The notes: generated by a model not told the origin, from the letters alone. A stretch of DNA of 24,000 bases from an uncultured Methylococcaceae bacterium (GCA_964582755.1 CAZOTR010000003.1:1-24000); one strand, 5' to 3'; shown: positions 5,748-24,000, numbered from the stretch's first letter. Numbers and translations: made by a program.

Positions 5748-5762
5748 TTTGACCGCTCAACC

Positions 5763-8859: not shown

Positions 8860-9510
8860 ATGTTCAAACGATTTTCCTTACTGCAGCCATTGGCCCTGTT
8901 TGCCTTCTTGTCCGGCTTGGCATTTATTCCTGTCCAGGCTGGGGCGGATGAACTCATGCAAAGCAATCTGGGAACGTCGCCGGCATGGAAGTCATGGGAT
9001 CGGATGACCGTCACCGCGCCCCGATCACTGTCCAAGACCAAAACCCTCCAGCTTCCCGATTTCCTGCTGAAGATATGGGCGAATGAAATTGCCGCGAATG
9101 ACGATAAATACTTGAAGGACGGCAACGGACAACTCATTAAAAATGGACATGCGCCTGCCGAAGCGCTGTATTCGGTGTACCACGATGGCGATCTGACGGT
9201 AATCGTCAGCCTGTTGAACACCGCCAAGTATTGCCAGGACGGCCCAAATGATTCCGCCAGCACCCAGATTCACTCCACCTGCCCCGTCCGCGTGACCGTG
9301 ACGCGGGGCGGTGAGTCCAAGAGCCTTAATTATCCCGAGGCGTGTTTCCTGGATATTAGCTACGGCAATCCGCCCGGTGGCCCAGACCCTCTCACCAACG
9401 CATCGCTGACCCGGTATGACCGGCAGGCAGGCGTGGTCGAGCTGGTGGCGATCCGCGACAACCGGTCCCTGCCCGAGTGCGCAAAACAGTTGAAGGTTCC
9501 GCCCCTGTGA
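8860..9510 (+). CDS. Secreted protein of unknown function
   Basis: 216 aa. N-terminal signal peptide MFKRFSLLQPLALFAFLSGLAFIPVQA|GA. No family recognised. Confidence 0.6.
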   Translation: MFKRFSLLQPLALFAFLSGLAFIPVQAGADELMQSNLGTSPAWKSWDRMTVTAPRSLSKTKTLQLPDFLLKIWANEIAANDDKYLKDGNGQLIKNGHAPAEALYSVYHDGDLTVIVSLLNTAKYCQDGPNDSASTQIHSTCPVRVTVTRGGESKSLNYPEACFLDISYGNPPGGPDPLTNASLTRYDRQAGVVELVAIRDNRSLPECAKQLKVPPL

Positions 9511-10379: not shown

Positions 10380-10388
10380 TTTCCAAGC

Positions 10389-10598
10389 GTGGCGGCTGCG
10401 TTTTCAGCCGTACCCTTTGCCGCCGTGTGCCTACGCTTCCGGCGGCGGATTCCCCAGGGAATCCTGTAGGCGTCACAGGCCGCAAGGCCTTTCCACTTCG
10501 GGATCGCCGATCCCTTCTTTTCACCACACCCGACGGGGAAACACAGCCCCGCCGGGGGCTGCGTTTCCCCGTTTTTTCATTCAAAGCGGAGAAACACC
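10389..10598 (+). repeat. Structured ICE leader element, copy B (full, short form)
   Basis: Six successive hairpins, including gccgccg/cggcggc, ggattcc/ggaatcc, aggcc-gcaa-ggcct and gggatc/gatccc. The last is the nested terminal hairpin cggggaaac...gtttccccg + T6, then GGAGAAACACC-ATG of the DUF3577 gene. Confidence 0.85.
10534..10577 (+). terminator. Intrinsic-terminator-like hairpin + T6 inside copy B, 21 nt upstream of the ATG
   Basis: cggggaaac-acagccccgccgggggctgc-gtttccccg followed by tttttt. GC-rich 9-bp outer stem with an inner 7-bp stem. Confidence 0.5.
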
Positions 10599-11051
10599 AT
10601 GAGCGACAACACAAATACCCCATCCAATTATTTTGACTTGCATGTGACCGGCCTGGGCTATCTGAACCGTGTCCGGGAGGTCAAGGTTCCGCGCGGCAAG
10701 CCATTTTTGGCCGCGAGCATCGCGGCCCTGCACGGCGCGTCGGACTCGGTTGAAAAGACTTGGTTCGACGTGCGCGTCTCCGGGCAGGAGGCGCAGAAGG
10801 TGGTCCGGGATCTGATGCCCGACGCCGAAGCCGGCAAATCGGTTTTGGTCGGCTTCAAACTGGGCGACCTGACTGCGGAAACCTTTGTTTACGAGAAAGG
10901 CCCGAAGGCCGGACAAACCGGCGTCAGCCTGAAAGCCCGGCTGCTACGCATCGCCTGGGCCAAGGTTGACGGCAAGACGGTCTACACGGCCCCGAAAGAC
11001 GCCCAGCCCGCCGACGACAGGCAAGGCAGCGCCTTGCCCGAAGCGGCCTGA
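10599..11051 (+). CDS. DUF3577-family SSB-like ICE protein (STY4534-type)
   Basis: 150 aa. YFDLHVTGLGYLNRVREVKVPRGKPFLAASIAALHG ... VSLKARLLRIAWAKVDG matches my memory of the DUF3577/STY4534 family conserved in SPI-7/PAPI-1/ICEclc-type elements. Confidence 0.75.
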   Translation: MSDNTNTPSNYFDLHVTGLGYLNRVREVKVPRGKPFLAASIAALHGASDSVEKTWFDVRVSGQEAQKVVRDLMPDAEAGKSVLVGFKLGDLTAETFVYEKGPKAGQTGVSLKARLLRIAWAKVDGKTVYTAPKDAQPADDRQGSALPEAA

Positions 11052-11180
11052 CCGTTGGCTCCATCTGCCGCCCGCCAGAAACCGCAAGGTTTTCTGGTAG
11101 GCGGCTCCTATAGCCAATTCAATCGCCCAATTCTTCAATCCAAATTTTCAAGCAAGTGTTGTAAACTTTGATCTTCACTC

Positions 11181-11245
11181 GTGGCGACTGCGACTCAGCC
11201 GCACCCTTTGCCTAGGCTTTCCAGGCGTGTCTGCGCTTCCCTGGA
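11181..11245 (+). repeat. Structured ICE leader element, copy C (partial: first two hairpins only)
   Basis: gtggcgactgcgactcagccgcaccctttgcc is near-identical to copies E and F. The second hairpin keeps the loop cgtgtctgcgcttc, but its stem is replaced by ccagg/cctgg. Confidence 0.6.
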
Positions 11246-11474
11246 CGCGATAATCTATCTTCCGTCGATCAACGTAATCTTCGGATGGTCGCGAGCAGAC
11301 GTCCCAAACCGCCCATTGACATGACAGCGGTTCTAACCAGCGTCGGTATGTGAAAAGCCCGCCGCGTTTTCCAATTCGTCCGGGGATTTAAGCGTCCCCG
11401 GACACCCCACAACCCTGACAGGGCACTTGCCCGGTCATGGGAAGTGCCTTGCGTTTTCAGCAAGAGGCAACCCC

Positions 11475-12077
11475 ATGATCAACTTATCAGGAAATCTTTA
11501 CATACGTTCGGTCCACGGCCGCAACGGCGATTTCTCGGTCGGCCGGCTGGTCACCGACATTGGCGAGTTCGTCCTGCGCGACGAGTTCCTTAGGCAGTAC
11601 GGCGAGGGCCATTACCAAGGCGAGTTCGGCATTGCCGAAATCTTCCCGGCCAGCTATGTGGCTGGAGGCCGCATGGTGATCGAAATCCGCGCCACTTTGG
11701 CTTCATTGGCCTTGGCGGCGATTGACGACCTGCCCGGCGGGCAAGCGGAATCCGCAGTATCGGCGGAATCTGCTCTGATTGGCCCGGAAGCCGGGGAAGC
11801 TACGCCCCCATCCAAAGCGACATCCAGGCGCAACAAGCCGGGTGTGGCGAAACCTCCAAACGATGGACAGCCTGCCCAAAACGAGATATTTCCCCCCACG
11901 GGAGATGCCTGCGACGACGGGGCCGACGCTCATTTGTTCGGTGCCTTGTGGCCGCTGGGCGACACCGTGAGGCTGGACACATCGGTCAGCCGGGCCTTGT
12001 TCCGCCAGCAAAAAGAGCGGATGAAGGCGCTGGGGTACACGTTCCAAGCGTCCGGCCAACTGTGGGTTCGGACGTGA
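11475..12077 (+). CDS. DUF3275-family ICE protein
   Basis: Start chosen at ATG 11475 (MINLSGNLYIRSVHGRNGDFSVGRLVTDIGEFVLRDE...YVAGGRMVIEIRA). This N-terminal pattern is what I recall for DUF3275. The upstream part of the track ORF (from 11427) has no RBS support. Confidence 0.65.
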   Translation: MINLSGNLYIRSVHGRNGDFSVGRLVTDIGEFVLRDEFLRQYGEGHYQGEFGIAEIFPASYVAGGRMVIEIRATLASLALAAIDDLPGGQAESAVSAESALIGPEAGEATPPSKATSRRNKPGVAKPPNDGQPAQNEIFPPTGDACDDGADAHLFGALWPLGDTVRLDTSVSRALFRQQKERMKALGYTFQASGQLWVRT

Positions 12078-12127
12078 AATTCCTGGCGCAAGGCTTTGCC
12101 TTGCGCCCGGCAACCGGATTTCCAAGC

Positions 12128-12341
12128 GTGGCGGCTGCGTTTCCAGCCGCACCCTTTGCCGCCGTGTGCCTACGCTGCCGGCGGCGGATTCCCCAAGGAA
12201 TCCTGTAGGCGTCTTAAGGCCTCAAGGCCTTTTTCACTTAGGGATCGCCGATCCCGTCTTTTCACCACACCCAGCGGGAGAACGCATCCCCGCGCCGGGT
12301 CTGCGTTTCTCCGTTTTTTTCATTCCATTCGGAGAAACGCC
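12128..12341 (+). repeat. Structured ICE leader element, copy D (full, short form)
   Basis: Collinear with copy B, including the shared 5' flank gatttccaagc. Terminal hairpin + T7, then GGAGAAACGCC-ATG. Confidence 0.85.
12275..12320 (+). terminator. Intrinsic-terminator-like hairpin + T7 inside copy D, 21 nt upstream of the ATG
   Basis: cgggagaacgca...tgcgtttctccg followed by ttttttt. Confidence 0.5.
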
Positions 12342-13253
12342 ATGAGCAACAAGCACGAAATCACTTATACCCTCGGCTACCTGCACCGGGTCACGGTGGG
12401 GGTTGAAGCCGACAACGGGGAGGCGGCGCTGCGCATCGCCCAACAAGCTTTTGATAACGGTTTGATCTGGGACGACACCCCGGCCATGCCGCTGTTGTAC
12501 GACGATTTTGAGGAGAACGGCGACGGTTTGGACTGGGAAGTCCAGGCGGTCGAGGCGTTTAGCCAGCAAGATCCTTCCGTCAAGGTTCTACAGGCCCAGC
12601 GGAAGGCGTTGGAAGCCTGCCGGGCACTGGTTGCCGCCTATGCAGCCGGCGAAGAGGGCGACGGTTCCGTGTCTTGGGAAGACCTGGACTCCGTGCATGG
12701 GCTTGCCCGGCAAGCCCTGGCTTTGCTGGACGATTCCGCGATGGCATCCGCCCGCGCCACCGGCCCCAAAGCTAGGAAGTTGGCGGAAGCGGATTCGGCG
12801 CGCCCAAGCGATGCGTCTTCACTGCCCACGGTGGCCGATGTCCCACTGCGCCGCATCGTCGAGAGACTGGCGCAGTTGAAGATGTGGGATTTCGACGAAC
12901 GCGACGCCGATGACGACGGAAGCCTGGCCGCCAAGGAAATCGACGACGAAACGGATTGGCTGGACAGCCACATTTTGCTGATGACTTTCATCCGCGATGC
13001 CAGGAGGGCATTGCAGTCCGCCAAGCCTCCGCGTCTGGCCGTTGTGCTGGAGGTCGGAATCGTCCATGCGGTGGTGTCGGACAACGCCGTTGATCTGGCG
13101 GTGGCCGTCATCGACTACGACATCGAAGGTGCCGATGACGATGAATTGTCTTCGGTTCCGCAGGGCGACGGCACCTGCGTGGATGCCGTGGTGGGTTGCT
13201 GGAATGCGACCCCGGCGGCCATCGACCTTGACGCGGTGTTTGCCGCTTCATGA
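12342..13253 (+). CDS. Acidic hypothetical ICE protein
   Basis: Start chosen at ATG 12342 (MSNKHEITYTLGYLHRV...), directly after the conserved GGAGAAACGCC. The 82 codons upstream in the track ORF lie in repeat copy D. Asp/Glu clearly outnumber Lys/Arg by eye. No family recognised. Confidence 0.6.
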   Translation: MSNKHEITYTLGYLHRVTVGVEADNGEAALRIAQQAFDNGLIWDDTPAMPLLYDDFEENGDGLDWEVQAVEAFSQQDPSVKVLQAQRKALEACRALVAAYAAGEEGDGSVSWEDLDSVHGLARQALALLDDSAMASARATGPKARKLAEADSARPSDASSLPTVADVPLRRIVERLAQLKMWDFDERDADDDGSLAAKEIDDETDWLDSHILLMTFIRDARRALQSAKPPRLAVVLEVGIVHAVVSDNAVDLAVAVIDYDIEGADDDELSSVPQGDGTCVDAVVGCWNATPAAIDLDAVFAAS

Positions 13254-13296
13254 AGACCCAGCGTTTGACTGAAACCCATGCCCGGAGGAGGAAACC

Positions 13297-14382
13297 ATGA
13301 ACGCCCGTAAACTCGAAGCAGGCCCAGTCCGCGAGGCGGTGCGGGGGCGCTGGGTGCCGGTGCTGCAAGCATTGGCACCCGAATTGGACGCGGCGCTGGC
13401 TAAACCCGGCAGGCATGTGGCTTGCCCGATGCATGGCGGTCGCGATGGGTTCCGCCTGTTCAAAGATGCGGAAACTTCCGGTGGCGGGATCTGCAACACC
13501 TGCGGCGCGTTTCCCGACGGCTTCAGCCTGTTGCAGTGGCTCAAGGGCTGGAATTTTCCGCAGGCGCTCGGGGCGGTGGATGCAGCCATCGGCGGCGTGG
13601 CTTTGACCCGCGTGGCTTTGTCAGAACCGGCGTTGCCGGCCAAGACTCAACCCCGCAAGACTGCCTCCGAAGACGGCCAAATCCGTCGGCGTCTGGCGGA
13701 GACCTGGGCGCAATCCGAGCATTGGCGGGATGCCCTGTCCCAACCGCTGCGGGACTACCTGGCCCATCGCGGTTTGGACACCGGCATTTTGCAAGGCGTG
13801 GAGGCCATCCGCTTCCATCCGGGCTTGCGCTACCACGACGAGGACGGCCACTACGGCGGCACGTTTCCGGTCATGCTGGCTCGGGTGTCCGACGCGCACG
13901 GCAAACCGGTGACACTCCACCGCACTTACCTGACCGAAGCGGGCAGGAAAGCGTCGGTGGAAAACCCGAAGCGAATGATGCCGGTGCCATCGGATCAACC
14001 GGTCTTGGGCGGCGCTATTCGCTTAGGCGTTGCCGAGCCGGTCATCGATTTGGCCGAAGGCATCGAAACCGCCTTGGCCGTGCGCCAGGCAACCGGGCTT
14101 CCGGTGTGGAGCGCGGTCAGCGCCACGCTGTTGGCGGGCTTCGATCCACCGCCCGGAACCCACAAGCTGCGGATCTGGTGCGACCGGGACCGCAAGGGCG
14201 TAGGCGAGGAGGCGGCGCAGAAACTGGCGGAGCGTCTCGCTGAGAGGGGCATTCCAACCGAGTTGCTGATTCCGCCCGAGGCGATGCTTCGGGATGGCAA
14301 AAGCGTTGACTGGTTGGATGTCCTCAACGAGTACGGTTCTGCGGTTTTCCCGCTGTCGCCAAATCGGTGGGCGGCGGCATAA
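13297..14382 (+). CDS. Primase-like protein: P4-alpha-type zinc ribbon + Toprim domain
   Basis: 361 aa. RBS GGAGGAGGA. Zn-binding pattern HVACPMHGG ... ICNTCG. Toprim Glu in IDLAEGIETALAV and an acidic cluster in WCDRDRKGVGEEAAQ. No helicase domain is attached. Confidence 0.75.
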   Translation: MNARKLEAGPVREAVRGRWVPVLQALAPELDAALAKPGRHVACPMHGGRDGFRLFKDAETSGGGICNTCGAFPDGFSLLQWLKGWNFPQALGAVDAAIGGVALTRVALSEPALPAKTQPRKTASEDGQIRRRLAETWAQSEHWRDALSQPLRDYLAHRGLDTGILQGVEAIRFHPGLRYHDEDGHYGGTFPVMLARVSDAHGKPVTLHRTYLTEAGRKASVENPKRMMPVPSDQPVLGGAIRLGVAEPVIDLAEGIETALAVRQATGLPVWSAVSATLLAGFDPPPGTHKLRIWCDRDRKGVGEEAAQKLAERLAERGIPTELLIPPEAMLRDGKSVDWLDVLNEYGSAVFPLSPNRWAAA

Positions 14383-14429
14383 GGGCAGGTTCTGACTTGG
14401 CCTGAGAGTGTTGTTTTGTTGTTCGACCC

Positions 14430-14488
14430 ATCCGGGGAAATTCCCCGGACTGGGGGGTTCTCCGGACTTTAACCTGAGGAGAAACCCC
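14430..14488 (+). repeat. Structured ICE leader element, copy H (terminal-hairpin module only, no T-tract)
   Basis: ccggggaaattccccggactggggggttctccgg aligns with the terminal module of copy F (ccggggaaacctttccccggcgggacaggtttctccgg). It is followed by GAGGAGAAACCCC-ATG. Confidence 0.55.
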
Positions 14489-15565
14489 ATGCAGATAGAG
14501 ATAGTAAAACTTTTCCGGGTGGCGGATGTGTTCGGCCTTTACGCCGACGCCTTCGTCCAAGACCGGCAGTCCGGCCAGTTGATCTTCGCCTCCTTCTGGG
14601 GGCGTGACACGACTATCCAGGAACTGCTGGCGCGGCTTACTTTGTCGTCATCGGAAGGCGGTCTGGCCTCGCTGGACTTCAACCCGTGCGACAACCCGGA
14701 CAACGGGCTGAACGTGTCCATCGGCGATCCGAACCGGCTCGACAAGTTGACTGGCAGGATGCCCGCCGACAATTTGTTCGGCGCGGTGGCGCAGTTGTGG
14801 CTCTATGACCGCAAGGCCGTGGAACCCGATCATGCCAGCCGTCGGGCTTTGTTGCTGACCGGCGAAGACGTGTCCGACGGGCAATGCGGCAGCGCACCTG
14901 AGGACGAAAAGGTCTGGGCGCTGTTCAAGACGGTATCCCATCTGCCATTGCTCGACCACTGGCGGCAGGTATTGATTTCGGTCGCATTGTCCTGTGGCTG
15001 GCTGCGGATACACCCAGGCTTCCAGGTCAACGCGATTGAGTTGGATCTGGGCGTGGAGGACTACGAAGCCACGGTCAGCGAGTTGATCCGGCAAGGGCGC
15101 TTGACCCTCGAAGCGGGTGAGCCTCAAGCCGCACGGGAAGCCGATCCATTGCCCACGGTAATGTCGGCGTCAACCGATGAGAATCCGGTAACCACAGGGC
15201 GTTTGTCGGCGGAGCAGCTTGAGGATGGCTTGGCGCAATTCTACGGAACCCAACAATGGTTTCCGCATTGGCTCGTCAAGAACATGCTCTACACGGAAGG
15301 CGTCCAGTTTTTCGCCGAACAAGGCGGGGAGCAGGGGGCTTTCTGGTTTTTGGATATTGTGGCGACGGAATATTTTCAACTGCAACGGCAGGAGCCGTTC
15401 ATGCTGATCAAGCTGACCTCCAAGGACAAAAAAGCCACCGTCCAGGTGGAAAACGGCAATGGCCGGGTGTTGAAGGAAAAGAAGATCGAATACACGGATC
15501 TTCAGCCCGGCGTCTGGAAGTTTTACCTGACGGATGATGTTTTGCTGTTGCCCGGCGAGTATTGA
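14489..15565 (+). CDS. Hypothetical ICE protein with a DUF6876-like C-terminal domain
   Basis: Start chosen at ATG 14489 (MQIEIVKLF...) after the RBS GAGGAGA. The C-terminal ...YTEGVQFFAEQGGEQGAFWFLDIVATEYF...GVWKFYLTDDVLLLPGEY resembles the DUF6876 family as I recall it. Confidence 0.6.
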   Translation: MQIEIVKLFRVADVFGLYADAFVQDRQSGQLIFASFWGRDTTIQELLARLTLSSSEGGLASLDFNPCDNPDNGLNVSIGDPNRLDKLTGRMPADNLFGAVAQLWLYDRKAVEPDHASRRALLLTGEDVSDGQCGSAPEDEKVWALFKTVSHLPLLDHWRQVLISVALSCGWLRIHPGFQVNAIELDLGVEDYEATVSELIRQGRLTLEAGEPQAAREADPLPTVMSASTDENPVTTGRLSAEQLEDGLAQFYGTQQWFPHWLVKNMLYTEGVQFFAEQGGEQGAFWFLDIVATEYFQLQRQEPFMLIKLTSKDKKATVQVENGNGRVLKEKKIEYTDLQPGVWKFYLTDDVLLLPGEY

Positions 15566-15583
15566 TATTCGCCCCAGGCGGCA

Positions 15584-15855
15584 CCCCCCAGTGATTGGGG
15601 GGCTTCTTTAAGCCACCCCGACCGGGGCGGCTTAAAGAAGTCTCCGAGCAACAACGTGGCGACTGCGTTCTCAGCCGCACCCTTAGCCGTCGTGTGCCTA
15701 CACGTCCGACGGCGGATGCCGTTGGTGTCCCGTAGGCGTCACAGGCGATTAGCCTCTTCACTTCGGAACCGACGGTTCCATTTTTCCATAACCCGACGGG
15801 GAAGCCTTTCCCCTAAGGGGCAAGCTTCGCCGTTTTTTCCAATCGGAGAAGCGCC
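15584..15855 (+). repeat. Structured ICE leader element, copy E (full, long form)
   Basis: An extra 5' module: C6-agtgatt-G6 hairpin plus a 12-bp perfect stem cttctttaagcc/ggcttaaagaag. Then the common core from gtggcgactgcg (15656). Then the terminal hairpin + T6 and GGAGAAGCGCC-ATG. Confidence 0.85.
15794..15838 (+). terminator. Intrinsic-terminator-like hairpin + T6 inside copy E, 17 nt upstream of the ATG
   Basis: cgacggggaagc...gcttcgccg followed by tttttt. Confidence 0.5.
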
Positions 15856-16269
15856 ATGAACCAACATCAACATCAGCCGACATCCGGCCTGATTTACCCC
15901 TGTGACCGCTGCGGCCAGGCCAACCAGATCGTCAACCAATGCGGCTGCGATCCGGCCAACCTGCCCACTTTTGTCCAAGCGGACGACCGTTTAGTCGAGT
16001 CACTGCTCGTATTGACTGAGTTCGTCAACAACGTTAAGAACTCCAAAGCCCGGGTGGTTGCCAGCATTCTGGTCGCGCTCTGGAATGAAGACCGCGTAGT
16101 CCCCCATCTGCAATGGGTGGCGATGCTGGATCCTGTCACTTTCGAGCACGTCCTCAATGTGCTGCGGCTGGTGGCTACCGGGATACCCCTCGAAAGATTC
16201 TTGCAAGGAGGATCGGACGTTTTTGAGGGGATCATTCGGAGATATAACTTCAAGCAGAGCATCCCGTGA
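15856..16269 (+). CDS. Hypothetical ICE protein
   Basis: 137 aa. Conserved leader/RBS context directly upstream. N-terminal CDRCG...NQCGC Cys pairs. No family recognised. Confidence 0.55.
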   Translation: MNQHQHQPTSGLIYPCDRCGQANQIVNQCGCDPANLPTFVQADDRLVESLLVLTEFVNNVKNSKARVVASILVALWNEDRVVPHLQWVAMLDPVTFEHVLNVLRLVATGIPLERFLQGGSDVFEGIIRRYNFKQSIP

Positions 16270-16372
16270 ATGCGTAGGCCCAGCCTGCGCGTCATGGGAG
16301 AAATCCGGCCAGCCGGTTCGTGACTGGCGGGCTGCTTCGCTGACTTAAGGATTGGCCTCCAATTCTGATAAA

Positions 16373-16508
16373 CCGCCGCGTGCCTGCGTTGTCGGCGGCC
16401 ACCCGACAAGGGTGGGGCAGGCGTCTTTTTACTTACCTTTCGGGGAAACCTTCCCCGGCAGGGCGTGGTTTCTCCGCGAGGATCATTCCAATCCGACAGG
16501 AGAACACC
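16373..16508 (+). repeat. Structured ICE leader element, copy G (degenerate: hairpin 2 + terminal module, no T-tract)
   Basis: ccgccg-cgtgcctgcgttgt-cggcgg corresponds to hairpin 2. cggggaaaccttccccggcagggcgtggtttctccg corresponds to the terminal module. Then AGGAGAACACC-ATG. Confidence 0.55.
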
Positions 16509-17345
16509 ATGCGCCAGAACCAATTGGTTTCAAAATTTAGACACTTGAGCGGGTTCGCCAAGGCCAACGCGCCGTTGACCGACGATGAAATCCGCCGTGC
16601 GGCCCCCTCGATCTTTGCGGCCAATCCGCACGGGTCGCGCTCGGAGCGCTATACCCTGATCCCGACCATCGACGTGCTGACGGCACTGCGCAAAGAAGGG
16701 TTTCAGCCCTTCATGGTCGTGCAGGCCGGGGTGCGCAATGAAGACCGCTTGGACTTCACCAAGCACATGATCCGGCTGCGCCACGAAAGCCGGATCAATG
16801 GCGCGGAGGCCAACGAGGTGATCCTCGTCAACTCCCACGACGGGTCGAGTTCCTACCAGATGCTCGGCGGCGTTTACCGCTTCGTCTGCCACAACGGGCT
16901 GATCTGCGGCGACACGGTTGAAGACCTGCGGGTCAAGCACCGTGGCGACGTGGTGGGCCAGGTCATCGAGGGGGCTTACACCATCTTGAAGGACTTCGAC
17001 CGGGTGGACGCTTCCAAGGGCGAGATGAAAGCTTTGGAACTTGACGATGGCGAGCAAAGAGCCTTCGCCCGTGCCGCTTTGGCGATGCGCTACGAGGAAG
17101 GCAAGGAAGTGCCGGTCACCGAAGACCAGGTGTTGCGACTGCATCGACGTGAGGACGACGCCGACAACCTCTGGACCACGCTGAATGTAGTCCAGGAGAA
17201 TCTGGTGCGGGGCGGACTGCGAGGCCGCAATGCCAAGGGCCGCAGGGTCACAACCCGGCCTGTCCAAGGCATCGACCAGAACGTGCAATTGAACCGGGGC
17301 CTTTGGGTGCTGGCCGAGGAGATGCGCAAGCTCAAGGCGGCTTGA
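16509..17345 (+). CDS. DUF932 (DUF945)-family protein
   Basis: Start chosen at ATG 16509. PLTDDEIRRAAPSIFAANPHGSRSERYTLIPTIDVLTALRKEGFQPFMVVQ is the characteristic N-terminal pattern of DUF932 proteins common on ICEs and plasmids. Confidence 0.8.
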   Translation: MRQNQLVSKFRHLSGFAKANAPLTDDEIRRAAPSIFAANPHGSRSERYTLIPTIDVLTALRKEGFQPFMVVQAGVRNEDRLDFTKHMIRLRHESRINGAEANEVILVNSHDGSSSYQMLGGVYRFVCHNGLICGDTVEDLRVKHRGDVVGQVIEGAYTILKDFDRVDASKGEMKALELDDGEQRAFARAALAMRYEEGKEVPVTEDQVLRLHRREDDADNLWTTLNVVQENLVRGGLRGRNAKGRRVTTRPVQGIDQNVQLNRGLWVLAEEMRKLKAA

Positions 17346-17438
17346 TACCCGAAAGGGAATGGCTCACTAACCCGCGAGGGGCATCAGCCCTCGCGGCGCC
17401 TGGATGCCCCTCGTTTTCCAATCACGAGGAGCATCACC

Positions 17439-18545
17439 ATGGCGTTAATGTTTCAACGGCTGGCGAGAAATTTCGCCGCGAACGGGTATTACCCTACCGA
17501 CGAGTCCACCATCGAACGGATATTGTCGATGCTGCGGCCCAGCCCACAGGGGACGATGAAACTCATCGACCCCTGCGCGGGCGAAGGGGTGGCGCTGGCT
17601 GAATGCAAGCACCATCTGGGCGCGGATCGCGCTGAGGCCTTCGGCGTGGAATTACATAAAGAGCGGGCCTGGAATGCGAAGGAAATCCTGGATCGTGTCA
17701 TCCACGGCGATTTCCAGGAGACCACGATCAGCTACCGCCGGTTCGGGTTGCTCTGGTTCAACCCGCCTTACGGCGATCTGGTCAGCGACCAGGGTTCCAC
17801 AGGCGACGACGGCGGCTCGGGGCGGCAACGCTTCGAAAAACTGTTTTACCACCGCGCCTACCGGCTGTTGCAGCCGGGCGGCGTCATGGTCTTGATAGTG
17901 CCGCATTATTCCCTAGACAAGGAGTATGCGGGCTGGATCGCGGGCTATTTTGAACGGGTCGAGGCGTTTCTGTCGCCCGGACAGCGTTTCAAGCAGGCCG
18001 TGGTGGTCGGGGTCAGGGCGAATGCCTGGCAATCCGGCGACGCGGCCAAGCGGGTGCGGGAACGGCTGCAAAGCCTGTCCCGTGGCGAAGCCGATACCCT
18101 GCCTGAAACCTGGGACGGCGAGCCTTACGAAATCCCCGAGGACAAGGGGCAGGCGGTCGAATTCACCGCCAAGCGTCTGGATCATGCCCAGCTTGCGGAG
18201 GAAATCCGCCGCCATCCCTGCCTGTGGCCGCAATTTGAATTGCACTTGGGCCGGGTGGGCAAGACCCAGCGTCGGCCCTTGCGGGCGCTCTCCCGCTGGC
18301 ATCTGGCCTTGTCGCTTGCGGCAGGCCAAGTTTCCGGGGTCGTCCGTTCCAATGACGGCAGCCGGGTGTACGTGGTCAAAGGCGACACCTTCAAGGGCAA
18401 GACCGTGAAGACCACGTTCGAGGAGGCCGAATCCGGGCATTTCGTCGAGATACGCACGGCGACGGATGTGTTCAAGCCGGTGATCCGGGCCTTGGACTTC
18501 ACACCGGGCAGCGAAACCTTCGGGCAGGCTTTGGTCATCCGATGA
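17439..18545 (+). CDS. SAM-dependent N6-adenine DNA methyltransferase-like protein (orphan)
   Basis: 368 aa. Motif I: LIDPCAGEGVAL. Motif IV: LLWFNPPYG (NPPY). No restriction-endonuclease gene is recognisable next to it. Confidence 0.75.
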   Translation: MALMFQRLARNFAANGYYPTDESTIERILSMLRPSPQGTMKLIDPCAGEGVALAECKHHLGADRAEAFGVELHKERAWNAKEILDRVIHGDFQETTISYRRFGLLWFNPPYGDLVSDQGSTGDDGGSGRQRFEKLFYHRAYRLLQPGGVMVLIVPHYSLDKEYAGWIAGYFERVEAFLSPGQRFKQAVVVGVRANAWQSGDAAKRVRERLQSLSRGEADTLPETWDGEPYEIPEDKGQAVEFTAKRLDHAQLAEEIRRHPCLWPQFELHLGRVGKTQRRPLRALSRWHLALSLAAGQVSGVVRSNDGSRVYVVKGDTFKGKTVKTTFEEAESGHFVEIRTATDVFKPVIRALDFTPGSETFGQALVIR

Positions 18546-18705
18546 CAGGGGCAGGCCGGAGGGATTGCGGAAAAGTTTGAGTTTCAACCCTCGCTGGCAT
18601 CGCCAGTGATTTTAACCACCGCCTTGCGGAGACGAACATGCTCTCCGCAAGGGGTAGCCGTGTTTCGTTTCCCAGGGCTTTTTTTTATCCTTGAGGAGAA
18701 CTGAT

Positions 18706-20490
18706 ATGGCTACAGAAACCACGTTGAAAGTGAACCAGGAGCGGCTGGTCAAAAATCTGCGCTTCAGCTTTACCGACGCCACCACGGTGTTGGGCGAGCT
18801 AATGCAGAACGCCCGCCGGGCCGGTGCGACGAAGGTCGTGATCGACTTTAACCCTGAGTCCAAGACCCTGGTGGTTTGCGATGACGGCTGCGGGATTGAC
18901 TGTTTTCAGACGCTGCTGACCGTGGCGGAATCGGGTTGGGACGCCGAGCTGGTCGAGCGTGAACATCCGTTTGGCATCGGCTTTTTGTCGGCGCTGTTCG
19001 CTTGCGAACACCTGACGGTGGAAAGCCGGGGCCAGCGGATCGCCATGCCGACGGCGGACATCCTGTCCTTCCAGCCGGTGGCGGTCACGCCGGTCATCCG
19101 CTGCCCGGTGGAACCCCGCTTCGAGGGCGACGCCTGCGGCTGCGGGTCGGACAATCTGACCGGCCCGGACGACGAAGGCGTTTACGATTGTTACGACTGC
19201 GGCTTGTTTTTCACCGCCGAAGCCATCGGCCAAGGCGAACGCTGGAACGGCGTGACGACCGTCAAGCTGGACGGCTTCAAGCCCGAACCCGGCAAGGTGG
19301 CAGGCCGCTTGGCGGCTTTGGCCGAGGGTTTTCCCATTCCGGTGGTGTTCAACGGCGAGGCACTCAAGCGGCCTTGGGCGCTGGACTCGGGACGCGAGTT
19401 CATCCAAACCGGGGTTGGCCAGGTTTACCTGAAAGGGTTTGGCGCCGGCGAGGCGTGGACGGCATCGGTGGAGGATCTGCATATCTACTTGCAAGGCTTG
19501 CCGGTTTACCAAACGCCGCGCAGTTGGCACCGGGGGGACAACAGCAATGTGATCCACCTGGATTCCTCGCTGTTCCACGCGAGGCTTCCCGACCGTGACA
19601 AACTGGTCGATGAAGACAAGGTGGTCAAGCAGGTGGCTGATGCCGTCAGGCAGGAGGTCATTCTGAGAATCCAGGCGTTGGCGGACAGCCTTGAACCCGA
19701 GGCGTTTGCCAAAGGCTATGACACACTTAGGAAATGGGATTGCCTTGAGTTGTTGAACGACATTCCGGTCATTCCCCGGCAAGTGCTGTCCTTCATCCAG
19801 AGCTATCCCATCAAGGAAGGTGCTTATCCGGTGAATCTCGACCAGGCGGAAACCGTCACCCGCGAGGATGTGGAGACTGGCAAGGTCTCCATCGCCCAAT
19901 TGGAATGTTTCAGTGAGGAGAACGCGCCGCACTGGATGTACGCTTGGCACAAGGGGATGCTGGTATATGACCATCCTTTGCACAGCGGCCATTGGCTGCA
20001 CCAGCATATGGTCGAGATGGACGGGCAGCCCGTCCAGGTGGAGATCGTCGGCGAGACCCACCGGGCCAATTTCGAAGGCCAGTGGGTGTGCGGCGACGCG
20101 GTGTTTTGCGAGAAGTACCGCCTGACCTTCGATGGCGATACGGTCGATATCGAAGGCGATTCGATCTATCTGGAGGACGATGGGCTGTTCGTGGTGCCGA
20201 AGTGTGACGCCTCCGGCTCTGTGGTGAACCAAGCCTGTTCGTACTTTGACGAGAACGACAGCTACAACCAGTCGGTCAAGGACGAGGACGACTGGGCGTT
20301 TGAGAAGTTCGTCGTGGCCAACACCTCGGCGAATCCGGCGAAAGCCCTGGAACGCCTGCTGCCATCTTTTGCGGGCTGCCCCAAGGTATTCGGCAGGCGC
20401 TTCACGCTGGAACTGGATTCGTCCGGGAAAGTCGTGTCGGTGGAGGAATCGTTGGACGGCAAGCTTGCAGGGCAAGGGATGGAGGGATAA
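18706..20490 (+). CDS. GHKL-superfamily (MutL/MORC/Hsp90-like Bergerat fold) ATPase with a Cys-rich insert
   Basis: Start chosen at ATG 18706 after the RBS GAGGAGA. N box: LGELMQNARRAGA. G1 box: VCDDGCGID. G2-like: HPFGIGFLSALF. The insert ...DACGCGSDNL...VYDCYDCGLFF (CxC ... CxxC) is zinc-ribbon-like. The large C-terminal region is not recognised. Confidence 0.7.
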   Translation: MATETTLKVNQERLVKNLRFSFTDATTVLGELMQNARRAGATKVVIDFNPESKTLVVCDDGCGIDCFQTLLTVAESGWDAELVEREHPFGIGFLSALFACEHLTVESRGQRIAMPTADILSFQPVAVTPVIRCPVEPRFEGDACGCGSDNLTGPDDEGVYDCYDCGLFFTAEAIGQGERWNGVTTVKLDGFKPEPGKVAGRLAALAEGFPIPVVFNGEALKRPWALDSGREFIQTGVGQVYLKGFGAGEAWTASVEDLHIYLQGLPVYQTPRSWHRGDNSNVIHLDSSLFHARLPDRDKLVDEDKVVKQVADAVRQEVILRIQALADSLEPEAFAKGYDTLRKWDCLELLNDIPVIPRQVLSFIQSYPIKEGAYPVNLDQAETVTREDVETGKVSIAQLECFSEENAPHWMYAWHKGMLVYDHPLHSGHWLHQHMVEMDGQPVQVEIVGETHRANFEGQWVCGDAVFCEKYRLTFDGDTVDIEGDSIYLEDDGLFVVPKCDASGSVVNQACSYFDENDSYNQSVKDEDDWAFEKFVVANTSANPAKALERLLPSFAGCPKVFGRRFTLELDSSGKVVSVEESLDGKLAGQGMEG

Positions 20491-20493
20491 GCC

Positions 20494-21000
20494 ATGTACC
20501 TGCATGACTTTGACGTGGCGTTTTGTGTGAAGTCCAACGTGGCGGAATGGGAGGATCTGCCGCCCTCTGTCGTGCTGTCCGTCTTGAGAAGACGGGTGGC
20601 GGAATTGACCGAGGACGAGGTTCTCGATGCGGTTGGATTCCTAAACACAATCCCGCTGGATGCCCCTGAAACCGGGGACGGAATGCCGGATGCCCATCGG
20701 GGCGGGCCGGGTGACAATCCGCCCCAGCCCAGATACCTGGCGGGAACCCGGATCTTGTCGATCTTCGGCGAATCCGGCGATACCGACGAGGAAATCGACG
20801 CGCAGACCGGCCCCCATGCCGTGGGAACCATCAGCCAAGTCCTCCCGGAGCAGGAAAACTGCTACGTGGTAGAGTTCCTTGGCGGGATATTCGCCTTCCT
20901 CAGCGATGAGGAGCTTGCGGATAGCCATTACTACCAGGTTTTGGACGGTGCTTCCGACGCGGTTGCCGTCCCCGAAACCGAGGAAGGAGAAGCGCCATGA
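20494..21000 (+). CDS. Very acidic hypothetical protein
   Basis: 168 aa. Starts 4 nt after the GHKL stop. Asp/Glu-rich with few basic residues. No family recognised. Confidence 0.5.
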   Translation: MYLHDFDVAFCVKSNVAEWEDLPPSVVLSVLRRRVAELTEDEVLDAVGFLNTIPLDAPETGDGMPDAHRGGPGDNPPQPRYLAGTRILSIFGESGDTDEEIDAQTGPHAVGTISQVLPEQENCYVVEFLGGIFAFLSDEELADSHYYQVLDGASDAVAVPETEEGEAP

Positions 21001-21248
21001 TCCGCGACGTGTTTGTGGTGATCTACGAGCATCGGCACGGCATGGACGTGGCGGCCCATGCCTCACACGGGCAGGCCTACGCCGCCGTGGCTGAAATTGC
21101 GCGAACCTGGTGGCAGGAACGCGCCGACCGGGCGGCACCGGAGGATTGTGCCGCGCTGTCCGACGAGGAAGTGGTCAATGCTTATTTCGACGGGCACGAA
21201 AGCGAGTTCTACAGCATTGAGAACTCAAAAGTCGATTTTCCCGATTGA
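20997..21248 (+). CDS. Small hypothetical protein
   Basis: 83 aa. ATGA overlap with the upstream ORF, suggesting translational coupling. No family recognised. Confidence 0.45.
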   Translation: MIRDVFVVIYEHRHGMDVAAHASHGQAYAAVAEIARTWWQERADRAAPEDCAALSDEEVVNAYFDGHESEFYSIENSKVDFPD

Positions 21249-21284
21249 ACGAGGCATCCACCCTCATCCAAAACTAGCTTTACG

Positions 21285-21553
21285 CCCCCCTTGCGGGGGG
21301 CTTCTTTAAGCGCCCCGGCGCGGGGTGCTTAAAGAAGCCTCAGAAAAAAACCGTGGCGACTGCGTTCTCAGCCGCACCCTTTGCTGCCGTGTGCCTACAC
21401 TGCCGGCGGCGGATACCTTGGTATCCCGTAGGCGTCATAGGCTGGAAGCCTTTCCATTTCGGGATCGACGATCCCTCTTTTTACCACCCGACCGGGGAAA
21501 CCTTTCCCCGGCGGGACAGGTTTCTCCGGTTTTTTTTGCATTGGAGAAACACC
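21285..21553 (+). repeat. Structured ICE leader element, copy F (full, long form)
   Basis: C6-ttgc-G6 hairpin and cttctttaagc/gcttaaagaag stem. Common core from gtggcgactgcg (21353). Terminal hairpin + T8. GGAGAAACACC-ATG. Confidence 0.85.
21493..21538 (+). terminator. Intrinsic-terminator-like hairpin + T8 inside copy F, 15 nt upstream of the ATG
   Basis: ccggggaaacct...aggtttctccgg (one G-U pair) followed by tttttttt. Confidence 0.5.
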
Positions 21554-21961
21554 ATGAACCCGCAACACCTTCAACTTTACCGGGAACTGCGCCAACAAGG
21601 GCTTGCCTCGCGCTACGCGCTGGCTTGCTCACGGGCGCGGATGGCCCTCGAATCCAAATGCGCGGCGACAGGCTTTGAATGGCGGGAAGACCGCCATGGC
21701 CTGCTGTACGCCTGCTGGCAAGAGGAGGGCTTTGACTTGATGGCCGCCGTCGTCATCGACGAGGACGGCTGGTGCGTAAGCGGCGTGGATTTCATCGGCC
21801 GGTTTACCAGCCGCTGGGAATCCGGCGCGATCCGCCACCACCAAGGCGACCGGAATGCCCACAAGTGGTTTATTCCGGCGAACCTGGGCGACCCCAAGGA
21901 GGAATACCGCCGCGCCTGTGCCTTCGGGCGCGACTGGTGGGTGCGACGTGAAGTCGTGTAA
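21554..21961 (+). CDS. Hypothetical ICE ORF, apparently interrupted at 21940/21941 by a group II intron
   Basis: Start chosen at ATG 21554 after the conserved leader. The reading frame runs 7 codons into the inferred intron (…GRDWW|VRREVV*), so the annotated C-terminus is probably not native. The 3' exon would lie beyond the window. Confidence 0.5.
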   Translation: MNPQHLQLYRELRQQGLASRYALACSRARMALESKCAATGFEWREDRHGLLYACWQEEGFDLMAAVVIDEDGWCVSGVDFIGRFTSRWESGAIRHHQGDRNAHKWFIPANLGDPKEEYRRACAFGRDWWVRREVV

Positions 21962-24000
21962 GTAATTGTTTCAGCTATGACAATAGCAGCGGAACCCGCT
22001 TTCCCTGGGCGGTAGCCTACCGGCACGGGCGGGACCAGCAATGGTCCGGTTCGAAGCTGCCGGGACAATGTAACCCATCCCGAAAGGGTAAGCCAGAAAC
22101 CGCGAGGGAGTAAGGCGTATCTGCCAGCGCAAGGCGGAAGGGGGCTAGGCTGGATGGCAAGGCTAACAAATGTGAACTGTCGATAAACTCCGTCACGTGC
22201 AACAAGCCAAATGCGCTGTCAGGCTTGAACCAAAAAGGTAAGGTGGTTGGCTAACCCAGATCCACCATCTGGGTTGCAGGGGCAAAGAAACCACCGGAGG
22301 AAAGACAGAGCCTAAACCATTCCCGTTACTTACACGGAACACGGAAACCCCGTTCCTCCGCCTGTGACCGGCAAGGAAAACCCCGTTCGGCGGGTATAGG
22401 TCGAAACATCTGAAGGGACGAAAGCCACAGGCAGGCCGCCCGTGAGGAAGGCTGAGGGAGGGCGGGAATAGGATGGCGGAAAAAGCGAATGCCGTCCTGT
22501 AATGGGGCGGATAGGGGTTGAAGCCGCAAGGCGACATCACCCTGGCCGGTAACGGCGCAGACGTCCGCCGAGTCTCTCTTTACGAGATAACTTTTAGAAC
22601 CTTCACAAGAGGGGATGCAAATGACTACGCAAGCACTTTGTTGCGCGGGTGCGCCCTCTGGCGAACCGTGGCACTGGCACAAAACAAAATGGGCTAAGTG
22701 TCACCGGGAAGTTAGGAGGCTGCAAGCGCGTATCGTAAAGGCAACGCAGGAAGGCCGCTGGGGCAAGGTGAAAGCTTTGCAATGGTTGCTGACCCACTCG
22801 CATAGCGGCAAGGCAATCGCCGTGAAGCGGGTGACCGAAAACACTGGCAAGAAGACCCCCGGAGTCGATGGGCAGACATGGCCCACGCCGGAGGCCAAAT
22901 CTCTAGCCGTGTTGTCACTCAAAAGGCGCGGTTACAGACCGCTCCCGCTGAGAAGGGTGTACATCCCCAAAAGCAACGGCAAGGAACGTCCGCTGGGCAT
23001 ACCGACGATGAAAGACAGGGCGATGCAGGCGCTAAACCTGTTGGCCTTGGAACCCATCTCGGAAAATACGGCGGACAGGAACTCATACGGGTTCAGGCCG
23101 GAAAGATCCACGGCAGACGCAAGGGAACAGTGCTTTAACACACTATCAAAACCTTGGTCCGCTCAATGGATTTTAGAAGGCGATATAAAAGGCTGCTTCG
23201 ACAACATAAGCCACCAATGGATGCTCGAACACATACCGACGGACAGGGTTGTGCTAGAGAAATGGCTGAAGGCAGGATACGTCTACAAAAACGGACTCTT
23301 CCCGAACGAGGCGGGGACGCCGCAGGGCGGGATCATTTCGCCAACCCTGGCGAATATGACGCTTGACGGGCTGGAATCGAAACTTGAAGAAACATTCGGC
23401 AAGAGAGAATCGAGGAAAGCCAAAAGCAACCAAGTCAACTTGGTTCGATATGCGGACGACTTCATCATTACCGCTAGGACGAAAGAACTGCTGGAGGATG
23501 AAGTCAAACCTCTAGTTATTGAATTTCTCAAGGAACGGGGCCTAACCCTCTCGGAAGAAAAGACTAGGGTAACGCACGTCAGCAAGGGGTTCGATTTTCT
23601 CGGATGGAATTGTAGGAAATACGACGGCAAGTTGTTAATCAAGCCGTCCAAGAAGAACTCGAAAGTGTTCCTCGACGGAATCCGGGATGTGATGAAGGGC
23701 AACAAACAGGCTAGACAGGAAAACCTTATTGGACTGCTCAACCCAAAAATTCGAGGATGGGCAAACTACCATAAAGGCGCAGTCGCCAAGGAAACCTTCA
23801 GCAAAGTTGACAAAGAGATTTGGAAAACACTGTGGCAATGGGCCGAACGCCGACACCCAAACAAAGGAAAACGATGGATCAAAGTTAGATATTTCAGGAC
23901 GGAGAGGAATCGAAACTGGGTATTTGCGGCAAGCGTCAAAACAGCGGAAGGGGAAACACGGACGGTGAGGCTGGTCAAGGCCAGCGACACCAAAATCCAG
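21941..24000 (+). mobile_element. Group II intron, 5' portion (domains I-III and domain IV with ORF); 3' end outside the window
   Basis: Begins GTGCGAC (5' GUGYG consensus). About 670 nt of ORF-free, hairpin-rich sequence follow, then an RT/maturase ORF. The hairpin aacccaga-TCCACCA-tctgggtt (22253-22275) has a loop CCACCA complementary to the exon TGGTGG immediately 5' of the junction (EBS1/IBS1). Confidence 0.85.
22615..24000 (+). CDS. Group II intron-encoded reverse transcriptase/maturase (partial, open to the window end)
   Basis: Translated by hand; absent from the ORF track because no stop codon falls in the window. M(Q)MTTQ...RRVYIPKSNGKERPLGIPTMKDRAMQ, SYGFRPERS, ILEGDIKGCFDNISH, GTPQGGIISPTLANM, VRYADDFII (YADD), GFDFLGW, LLNPKIRGWANYH (X/maturase domain). 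AGAGGGG RBS-like sequence upstream of ATG 22615; a second in-frame ATG at 22621. Confidence 0.9.
   Translation, partial: MQMTTQALCCAGAPSGEPWHWHKTKWAKCHREVRRLQARIVKATQEGRWGKVKALQWLLTHSHSGKAIAVKRVTENTGKKTPGVDGQTWPTPEAKSLAVLSLKRRGYRPLPLRRVYIPKSNGKERPLGIPTMKDRAMQALNLLALEPISENTADRNSYGFRPERSTADAREQCFNTLSKPWSAQWILEGDIKGCFDNISHQWMLEHIPTDRVVLEKWLKAGYVYKNGLFPNEAGTPQGGIISPTLANMTLDGLESKLEETFGKRESRKAKSNQVNLVRYADDFIITARTKELLEDEVKPLVIEFLKERGLTLSEEKTRVTHVSKGFDFLGWNCRKYDGKLLIKPSKKNSKVFLDGIRDVMKGNKQARQENLIGLLNPKIRGWANYHKGAVAKETFSKVDKEIWKTLWQWAERRHPNKGKRWIKVRYFRTERNRNWVFAASVKTAEGETRTVRLVKASDTKIQ

Follow-up and report, generated by a model that had tools for sequence, protein, structure and literature searches.

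Protective methylation is an established role of orphan methylases on conjugative elements (PMC11541004); these enzymes, and those of the genes ydg and ydhA of the gonococcal genetic island (GGI; PMC3334931), are of stand-alone N6-adenine type, with no nuclease. GHKL proteins have been tied to restriction-modification operons by Iyer et al. 2008 (PMC2292703): the MORC/paraMORC proteins carry an S5 domain after an N-terminal GHKL domain that has all the ATP-binding motifs, end in a family-specific C-extension, and are encoded in a conserved neighbourhood of SF2 helicase and endonuclease genes, sometimes beside methylases. Other described systems that bear on the present locus are MADS, the methylation-associated defence system, an eight-gene mad operon (bioRxiv 10.1101/2023.03.30.534895), and the leading-region anti-defence islands, which are among the first genes behind oriT on the transferred strand and have a Frpo-type ssDNA promoter upstream (Samuel et al. 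2024).

A first-pass annotation of a 24,000-nt stretch of DNA from an uncultured Methylococcaceae bacterium (the window) had proposed that an orphan methylase, a GHKL ATPase and two small ORFs at 17439-21248 form a defence or anti-defence module. Our analysis indicates instead that the methylase and the ATPase are accessory genes of a conjugative element which sit side by side but appear to be shuffled independently, rather than parts of a dedicated module for defence. The reading we favour, with a probability of about 0.7 for the whole of it, is that the host element is an MPF_G-type ICE, GGI/SPI-7-like and from a Methylococcales-like host, and that two separately expressed units of its accessory (DNA-processing/establishment) array make up the interval, one for a protective methylase and the other for the ATPase and two small proteins.

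The accessory array and its DUF6094 methylase

The interval belongs to a long run of accessory genes, all co-directional, of an MPF_G-type ICE; this array also includes, all in the same direction, genes for an ICE replication protein of the STY4534 family, TIGR03758, DUF3275, a Toprim primase, DUF6876 and DUF932 and, further downstream, RadC and an SNF2 helicase. No oriT or relaxase was found in the window or in a 20.5-kb stretch of the source contig (locus L168); the label "early" or "establishment" for the array comes from gene content alone. The four ORFs, together with the motifs and spacings first read in them, were confirmed in coordinates and motif positions. Comparison with two relatives gave dN/dS values of 0.07-0.18 for the methylase, 0.16-0.19 for the ATPase, 0.26-0.38 for orf3 and 0.11-0.33 for orf4: all four are thus real coding genes, under purifying selection.

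The methylase gene (17439..18545, + strand) encodes a 368-aa protein whose Pfam match and motifs mark it as a DUF6094-family DNA methyltransferase of the gamma class of N6-adenine enzymes. The Pfam match (6.7e-22) scores 78.1 bits against a gathering cut-off of 22.8, and the SAM-binding motif I, DPCAGEG (residues 44-50; 17568-17588), lies N-terminal to the catalytic motif IV, NPPYG (residues 108-112; 17760-17774), which is the gamma-class order. Neither motif varies among 28 homologues; full-length homologues number 952. DNA is the predicted substrate: the nearest solved relatives, matched only at E ~1e-3, are the DNA methylases M.BseCI and M.TaqI.

Pfam, NCBIfam and PADLOC profile searches revealed no recognisable endonuclease beside the methylase, as the first reading had it, and the protein appears to be an ordinary orphan N6-adenine enzyme of a conjugative element, lacking a nuclease partner. 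It resembles those already described in being co-directional with many small genes and in its expected role, protection from recipient restriction; from family and context, this role would most likely be self-protection, the enzyme methylating the element's own DNA so that restriction enzymes of the recipient do not cut. It differs from them in its family, DUF6094, and in having a conserved companion, DUF6876, whose gene lies in the window at 14489..15565 (+; Pfam 1e-28). Of 41 methylase loci that have flanks, 39 contain DUF6876, which is directly upstream in 16. The methylase domain is homologous to that of MADS mad2 (PADLOC mad2 2.8e-19, residues 15-189); identity with mad2 was considered and rejected, the NCBIfam MAD2 score being 24 bits against a cut-off of 720, with no mad matches among the neighbours, no eight-gene mad operon, and an ATPase that matches no mad protein.

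The GHKL ATPase and two small acidic proteins

After a gap of 160 nt (18546-18705) comes the ATPase gene (18706-20490, +), of 594 codons from its ATG; the longest ORF begins at a TTG (18691), the ATG being favoured by the homologue alignment and by a GGAG at 18693-18696. The N-terminal domain (18706..19578) is a Bergerat-fold ATPase (HATPase_c_3, 1e-7, Pfam), as the first-pass annotation recognised. Its motifs ELMQNARRAG (residues 31-40), DDGCGI (59-64) and FGIGF (89-93) are invariant or nearly so in 35 homologues, and E31, N35, D59xGxG63, G90xG92 and T116 are invariant in the alignment. All four GHKL nucleotide-binding motifs (ExxxN, DxGxG, GxG and T116) being present, the ATP-binding and hydrolysis site is predicted to be intact. 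Inserted in this domain is the CxC...CxxC element noted earlier, a Cys4 zinc-ribbon-like stretch (19096..19239, +; C144xC146...C162xxC165) predicted with a pLDDT of 58-76 and present, besides the window protein, in 7 of 34 aligned homologues, all close relatives; it is a clade-specific insert.

The best PDB sequence matches are the N-domains of MutL and Hsp90, with weak ones to Hsp83 and HtpG and none past residue 151; Foldseek with the full model gave TRAP1, Hsp90 and HtpG (E 3e-11), at TM-scores of 0.33-0.45. The likeness to Hsp90, TRAP1 and HtpG is confined to the N-domain, the C-terminal ~300 aa alone finding no Hsp90 middle-domain match. An Hsp90/HtpG chaperone, which would add middle and C-terminal dimerisation domains to the N-domain, was rejected as an identity, with 18.3 bits for NCBIfam HtpG against a cut-off of 371.

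The remainder of the protein is a family-specific C-terminal domain of ~300 aa (19579..20490, +). Modelled separately, the C-terminal 303 aa gave a pLDDT of 88.7 and a pTM of 0.83, and structure searches found no relative in the PDB (best E 1.5) or in BFVD (best E 0.15); in particular, Foldseek gave no match to the transducer domains of MutL, GyrB, Hsp90 or MORC. Sequence and structure searches placed it in no housekeeping family, and the earlier description of it as unassignable holds. Family searches returned 448 and 412 matches, in which the two-domain architecture is constant; at 50% identity the family comprises at least 412 clusters. In near-full-length homologues (about 530-570 aa, among the 412 clusters) the C-domain follows the GHKL domain at about residues 235-545, with conserved motifs HLDxxxFxxRLPDRD, LLND, GHWL, THRA and FCxxYR. 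Shorter matches among these clusters look like fragments. The family is carried by ICEs and megaplasmids (97 plasmids), one of them an MPF_G Enterobacter plasmid with DUF6094 ~9 kb from the ATPase.

Two small genes follow. orf3 (20494..21000, +) starts 3 nt past the ATPase stop and encodes the very acidic 168-aa protein reported earlier (pI 4.05; 34 D/E against 7 K/R). It has 19 homologues only, its residues 71-153 recur within longer proteins of other ICE arrays, and it matches nothing in Pfam, NCBIfam, PADLOC or PHROGs. The confirmed ATGA overlap joins it to orf4 (20997..21248, +), whose acidic 83-aa product has no Pfam match; orf4 is present in loci L086, L091/L006 and L168, and in L001/L002 its domain is the C-terminal half of a longer protein (173 aa) overlapping the ATPase stop, fused in L001 to a different N-terminus. 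Both genes are lineage-specific, confined to the closest relatives. The ATPase would be translationally coupled to these two proteins; like other GHKL proteins it would most likely dimerise through its N-domains upon ATP binding, its C-domain probably holding or remodelling some partner, DNA or protein, while the element transfers, replicates or becomes established.

Structured leaders along the array

Many cistrons of these arrays are headed by a structured leader RNA of ~220 nt, whose last helix sequesters the SD and AUG. Our model of it, R1, has 355 matches, every one on the gene strand; 90.9% of cells in the alignment are paired (shuffles, 72.2%; slid controls, 44-50%), compensatory changes occur in 49 of the 51 pairs, G.U is seen 672 times and A.C 99 times, and the start codon is fixed in position in 124 of 150 copies. 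The radC RNA motif is located in the 5' UTRs of DNA-handling genes. STAXI, too, is associated with DNA-handling genes of mobile elements (PMC2864571). Like these motifs and Frpo, the leader is repeated, structured, strand-specific and found beside such genes. It differs from radC and STAXI in matching no Rfam family: Rfam covariance models, radC (RF01754) and STAXI (RF01728) included, gave no match at E <= 1 in the window between 5000 and 22000, and seven leader-rich loci searched at gathering score yielded group II introns only. It differs from Frpo in that its structure belongs to the sense strand and its last helix masks SD and AUG; no sigma-70-like hexamer pairs were found in 15400-21700, nor was a Frpo-type ssDNA promoter detected, and the missing hexamers together with the G.U bias, a mark of sense-strand structure, argue against a Frpo-type element of the kind found upstream of the leading-region islands.

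Full copies flank the interval, upstream of the DUF7673 gene (15647..15861, +; R1 217 bits, alignment A5 and consensus structure) and, directly after the interval, upstream of orf5 (21344..21559, +; R1 228 bits). The first of these bounds the transcription block that holds the interval; terminator-like GC hairpins found by a terminator scan (21284..21340, +) close the unit, and their palindrome is also present at 15598-15645. Within the interval the leaders are degenerate. That of the methylase (17323..17438, +; fold z = -3.5) is reduced to two hairpins, the second pairing with SD and AUG, and matches R1 marginally (8.2 bits, E 0.014 in an 8-kb search); the 5' region of the ATPase (18591..18705, +; -46.9 kcal/mol, z = -6.5) is a similar two-hairpin structure with SD and AUG sequestered, not significant against R1 (E 0.77). 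Significant copies stand directly before the methylase start in at least 20 other ICE loci, and before the ATPase start in ~20, from which the array looks like a series of leader-plus-gene cassettes. Each of the two units would thus begin with a reduced leader copy whose final helix hides the ribosome-binding site; the full form on many other genes of the array suggests common post-transcriptional control, and variable gene order suggests that the cassettes are reshuffled between elements.

Gene association and competing explanations

Had the four genes formed a module, they would be expected to travel together, and for the most part they do not. The window shares all four, side by side and conserved, with L086, L091/L006 and L168/L169, its closest relatives, and the pairing of DUF6094 methylase and ATPase is limited to these; cassette reshuffling would explain this restriction. 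Of 80 DUF6094-methylase loci, 6 contain the ATPase, as do 3 of the 48 with at least 2.5 kb downstream, and 8 of the 85 ATPase loci have DUF6094 no more than 10 kb away. In the 51 ATPase loci with full 5-kb flanks on both sides, 30 (~59%) have no methylase-like gene within 5 kb and 41% have one; 39% of ATPase genes have a methylase-like gene, from one or other of two families, no more than 10 kb away. No neighbour is conserved across the 85 loci: according to lineage, the adjoining gene encodes a DUF4942 methylase, YqaJ, a primase, DUF6876, DUF932, a beta-clamp or TopB. A methylase-like gene directly adjoins the ATPase in 10 of the 51 loci, against ~8% expected from the local gene pool, and this excess means that some functional link may exist; at least eight of the ten belong to one Methylomonas ICE lineage. 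In ~16 Methylomonas-type ICEs the gene just upstream of the ATPase encodes a DUF4942-type methylase (NPPF); in Noviherbaspirillum such a methylase is separated from the ATPase by one gene, and in L080 it follows the ATPase immediately. Once ancestry is allowed for, this proximity cannot be distinguished from common membership of a methylase-rich array.

That the four genes nevertheless constitute a dedicated MORC/paraMORC-like system of methylation-based defence or anti-defence, the methylase marking self and the ATPase acting on unmarked or marked DNA, is in our judgement quite unlikely. Their adjacency in the closest relatives, the DUF4942-type methylases beside the ATPase in other ICEs, a methylase-helicase fusion that follows the ATPase in L084, and the ties of GHKL proteins to R-M operons speak for it. 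The ATPase shares with the MORC/paraMORC proteins an N-terminal GHKL domain, a family-specific C-extension and, at times, a place beside methylases; but the counts above tell against co-conservation, orf3 and orf4 stay with close relatives, the methylase and the ATPase each have their own leader and head their own cistrons in other ICEs, PADLOC matches of the ATPase are weak and N-terminal, and no S5 or transducer domain, helicase or nuclease partner was found, the family being restricted to ICE and plasmid arrays. The orphan methylase and the unmatched C-domain of the module first proposed therefore stand, while its co-conservation and its MORC-type partnership are not supported. A restriction endonuclease of a type II pair, akin to the GHKL enzymes BbrUII and HgiDII, with the DUF6094 protein as cognate methylase, is highly improbable: the two genes adjoin, and there are matches to NCBIfam BbrUII/HgiDII (8.3e-5) and PADLOC REase_II (5.5e-6) within the first ~65 residues, yet the former scores 21.3 bits against a cut-off of 550 over residues 23-65, Bergerat motif I only, no nuclease fold is seen in the C-domain, and a restriction enzyme could not persist without its methylase, which most members of the family do not have near them.

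Unlikely too, though not negligible, is a replication or DNA-processing factor working with the Toprim primase, in the GHKL-plus-Toprim manner of topoisomerases, rather than a conflict protein. In 22 of the 85 ATPase loci the window's primase has a homologue no more than 10 kb from the ATPase: it is immediately upstream in L007 and L039 and directly downstream in L053, L059, L061, L068 and, by tblastn position, L054, with a 4-nt overlap of ATPase and primase in L054, L059 and L061; a DNA polymerase III beta-clamp homologue and TopB are among other immediate neighbours, and the STY4534 replication protein is in the same array. Against this, the window's primase is 4.3 kb off with four genes between, most ATPase loci have no primase near, the association is no stronger than that with methylases, and the ATPase has no recognisable transducer or Toprim-interacting domain.

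The two-unit reading remains our preferred one. It has a bolder extension, to which we give rather less than even odds: the methylase and ATPase would be cassettes of an undescribed ICE organisation in which dozens of genes each carry the same leader masking the ribosome-binding site. With one leader on so many genes, the entire array could respond to one signal, from the element or the host, and be turned on once transfer has taken place, and recombination at leaders could shuffle the cassettes from element to element, in a loosely integron-like way; the GHKL protein would found a new family of conjugative-element ATPases, with a new C-terminal fold, acting in establishment or anti-defence.

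A "methylase plus MORC-like ATPase" system is unsupported and drops from the list of candidates, and the search for a partner of the DUF6094 methylase is best begun at DUF6876, its travelling companion, not at the ATPase. A high-copy, strongly covarying, SD-sequestering leader could account for the co-regulation of many unrelated accessory genes, and its punctuation of the arrays could also explain why gene order differs between elements. The ATPases, widespread on conjugative elements and combining a catalytic site predicted to be intact with a C-domain of no known structural relative, offer a clean target for structural and functional work, relevant to how ICEs and megaplasmids establish themselves.

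Four genes in an ICE accessory array

The first-pass annotation placed four ORFs in the interval 17439-21248 and proposed that they form a methylase plus ATPase module of defence or anti-defence. All four ORFs were confirmed at the positions it gave: a 368-aa methylase (17439-18545), with the motifs DPCAGEG (residues 44-50) and NPPYG (108-112); 160 nt further on, a 594-aa GHKL ATPase (18706-20490), with ELMQNARRAG (residues 31-40), DDGCGI (59-64) and FGIGF (89-93); orf3 (20494-21000; pI 4.05), which starts 3 nt past the ATPase stop; and orf4 (20997-21248), joined to orf3 by an ATGA overlap. Ratios of computed dN to dS against two relatives range from 0.07 to 0.38 across the four, showing all to be real genes. 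Megablast of the 3.8-kb interval gave no match in PLSDB plasmids or complete E. coli genomes, and a PHROGs search brought up no phage proteins related to the ATPase, orf3 or orf4.

A type II CBASS operon is located upstream, at 805-5182, and encodes a patatin effector, a DncV-like CD-NTase, E1/E2 (Cap2-like) and JAB (Cap3-like) proteins; its G+C content, 0.46-0.53, is below the 0.58-0.64 of the ICE backbone, and it is thus probably the element's defence cargo. The backbone, of MPF_G type, follows the operon: an integrase-like gene, a HerA/FtsK-like ATPase, TIGR03758, an STY4534-family ICE replication protein, DUF3275, a Toprim primase, DUF6876, DUF7673 and DUF932. At the junction of cargo and backbone, the gene of a recombinase-like 292-aa protein (6418-7296) matches Phage_int_SAM_2 and Integrase_1, and a partial leader copy (5754-5936; see below) lies ~480 nt upstream of it. 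On the source contig, which is 86 kb long and from a JGI metagenome, the array goes on, on the same strand throughout, to a group II intron followed by RadC, small ORFs and an SNF2 helicase. The intron, which matches Rfam D1-D4-7 at 118 bits and has an RT/maturase/HNH ORF starting at 22615, sits 34 nt 3' of orf5, the gene after the leader copy at 21344-21559, and runs from 21995 past the window end at 24000 (11502-13917 in the source-contig stretch L168). A related array, L001, has a similar intron at another site (4660-6999), indicating repeated invasion of these arrays. The closest genome locus is that of a Candidatus Methylumidiphilus MAG.

Gene neighbourhoods

We sampled 80 genome loci around ATPase homologues (locus numbers up to L085 below refer to ATPase loci) and 80 metagenome loci around methylase homologues. 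The ATPase was found in six of the 80 methylase loci, in which either the methylase is at least 64% identical to that of the window or the ATPase is a mere fragment upstream; it was present in 3 of the 48 methylase loci having at least 2.5 kb downstream. A DUF6094 gene, the Pfam family of our methylase, lies within 10 kb of the ATPase in 8 of 85 loci. The genes are thus not co-conserved, so that the four-gene module fails the test proposed in the first-pass annotation itself, and the modular interpretation is largely refuted; the observations that accompanied it were accurate.

Methylase-like genes of any kind were scored among 221 distinct neighbours with a motif IV regular expression, [DNS]PP[YFW], whose counts are lower bounds, the methylases of L080 and L084 having been missed. 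Among the 51 ATPase loci flanked completely, at least 21 encode such a protein within 5 kb of the ATPase and at least 10 right beside it, most of these adjacencies belonging to one Methylomonas ICE lineage. The gene immediately upstream of the ATPase varies: it can be a DUF4942-type methylase, YqaJ, the primase, DUF6876, DUF932, TopB, a homologue of the beta-clamp or an unknown gene. We rate the probability of a dedicated methylase-ATPase-orf3-orf4 module as low. Nor do we find it probable that the ATPase is a primase-linked replication factor. Primase homologues occur within 10 kb of it in 22 loci, about as frequently as methylase-like genes, and in three Burkholderiales elements (L054, L059, L061) the primase gene and the ATPase stop share 4 nt. 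A GHKL restriction enzyme is likewise an improbable identity for the ATPase. PADLOC returned only a partial methylase match (mad2) and weak matches to the GHKL N-terminus, hence no known defence system.

GHKL-Toprim juxtaposition recurs among ATPase loci, the Toprim primase homologue lying directly 3' of the ATPase in Burkholderiales-type elements (L053, L054, L059, L061, L068) and directly 5' in some Methylococcaceae relatives (L007, L039). DUF4942 proteins are encoded directly upstream of the ATPase in L003-L004, L011-L018, L031-L032, L044, L047-L048 and L050, and occur also in L057, L058, L062 and L064; they have the motif NPPF and, by profile, are related to a cluster matching N6_Mtase/MTS, so that DUF4942 is in all likelihood a family of N6-adenine methylases that is typical of ICE arrays. 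Of 41 flanked methylase loci, 39 have DUF6876, which lies directly upstream of the methylase in 16, and the two may be a functional pair. In the window, DUF6876 (14489-15565) and the methylase are separated by DUF7673 and DUF932.

The encoded proteins

The Bergerat fold occupies the N-terminal ~290 residues of the ATPase, which matches the MutL and Hsp90 N-domains in sequence and whose catalytic motifs are all invariant in 35 sequences; a Cys4 insert (residues ~131-178) is shared by the window ATPase and 7 of 34 aligned homologues, all close relatives. For the AlphaFold model of the whole protein (pLDDT 84), the closest structures are TRAP1, Hsp90 and HtpG (E 3e-11, TM 0.33-0.45). The C-terminal 303 residues, modelled alone (pLDDT 88.7, pTM 0.83), find no match in either the PDB (lowest E-value 1.5) or BFVD (0.15), and neither an S5/transducer nor an Hsp90 middle domain is detectable. 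A full-length Hsp90-like ATPase was rejected because the C-terminal half, modelled separately, is without any match; rIIA, among the BFVD matches at E ~1-2, was set aside as insignificant. Exhaustive HMMER searching found the C-terminal domain in 412 representative clusters. Proteins close to full length (~530-570 aa) have it at ~residues 235-545, C-terminal to the GHKL domain, so that the architecture is fixed; shorter matches look like fragments. The family is present on 97 plasmids, mostly megaplasmids, in Methylomonas, Paraburkholderia, Ralstonia, sphingomonads and others; on an MPF_G Enterobacter plasmid a DUF6094 gene is ~9 kb off, not adjacent. Literature searches that combined GHKL with conjugation turned up no description of this family, which is uncharacterised and carries a new domain. 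ATP-driven dimerisation and clamping is a general GHKL property (PMC2292703); the ATPase would dimerise and clamp in this manner, acting on some partner by way of the new domain.

The methylase (DUF6094, 6.7e-22) is ordinary for its setting. It belongs to a large family (952 matches, conserved over full length), with DPCAGEG and NPPYG unchanged across 28 homologues. The order of motif I before motif IV, the NPPY and the nearest solved relatives, M.BseCI and M.TaqI, indicate a gamma-class N6-adenine DNA methylase. MADS, an operon of eight genes (bioRxiv 10.1101/2023.03.30.534895), was rejected as its identity since the PADLOC mad2 match (2.8e-19) is restricted to the catalytic domain and NCBIfam MAD2 gives 24 bits where 720 are required. 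Titles and abstracts on DUF6094 and DUF4942 contained nothing addressing the function of either family. Orphan methylases of leading regions (PMC11541004) and the methylases that the related gonococcal island carries (PMC3334931) serve as analogues for the prediction that this orphan methylates protectively.

The small acidic proteins are modular. For orf3, 19 homologues were found among 5.8 billion proteins, and its residues 71-153 recur within proteins of 305-419 aa encoded at other places in ICE arrays; the orf4 domain, in L001, is joined to an unrelated 90-aa N-terminus. Such orf3/orf4 pieces are located in L001 (11791-12312), L021 (7185-8222), L024 (7366-8625), L037 and L045. Acidic small ORFs that follow the ATPase gene in other loci (clusters c15, c29) were rejected as remote homologues of orf3 and orf4 (hhalign probabilities ≤5%).

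A structured leader RNA

The most novel item came up incidentally. A ~260-nt repeat noticed at 15598-15855 and 21295-21553 proved to be a high-copy family of leaders, structured RNAs of ~220 nt that head many ICE cistrons. Blastn and Infernal placed copies in the window at 5754-5936 (partial), 10380-10604, 12119-12347, 15647-15861 and 21344-21559, and weaker ones at 11172-11480, 14357-14494, 16336-16514 and 17323-17444. Rfam has no family for the leader at 5000-22000 of the window or in seven leader-rich loci. A covariance model built from 12 copies matched 142 times among the ATPase loci and 213 times among the methylase loci (L001-L165 together), and each of the 355 matches is on the gene strand. 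An alignment of 150 copies, drawn from 52 loci, has 90.9% of its cells paired, where shuffles give 72.2% and slid partners 44-50%, and 49 of 51 pairs show compensatory changes, all these figures being somewhat inflated by fitting of the alignment to its model. G.U cells outnumber A.C cells 672 to 99, placing the structure on the sense strand, that is, in mRNA. No sigma-70-like promoter was found in 15400-21700, where terminator-like hairpins lie at 15584-15602 and 21284-21301; absence of sigma-70 hexamers and the sense-strand G.U bias led us to reject an Frpo-type ssDNA promoter for the intergenic repeats.

An ORF starts at one fixed model position in 124 of the 150 copies. The last helix, in which GUUUCYCCG pairs with the SD, CGGAGAAAC, sequesters SD and AUG; an upstream arm, CGGGGAAAC, mimics the SD, so that an alternative, terminator-like fold is possible. 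The window's methylase and ATPase genes have reduced, two-hairpin leaders in which SD and AUG are sequestered (z = -3.5 and -6.5) and which the model recognises marginally (E 0.014) or not significantly (E 0.77). Among other ICEs, about 20 loci have a significant copy directly 5' of the ATPase start, and at least 20 have one directly 5' of the methylase start. The mechanical ORF 12096-13253 has a TTG start, at 12096, that overlaps the full copy at 12119-12347; its true start is most likely ATG 12342, the one chosen on the source contig, which gives 303 aa. Among the leader-headed ORFs are STY4534, a 303-aa protein, DUF932, DUF6876, the methylase, the ATPase and 75 others. Shared leaders of this kind would place the genes of the array under common translational control, and may contribute to the shuffling of its cassettes.
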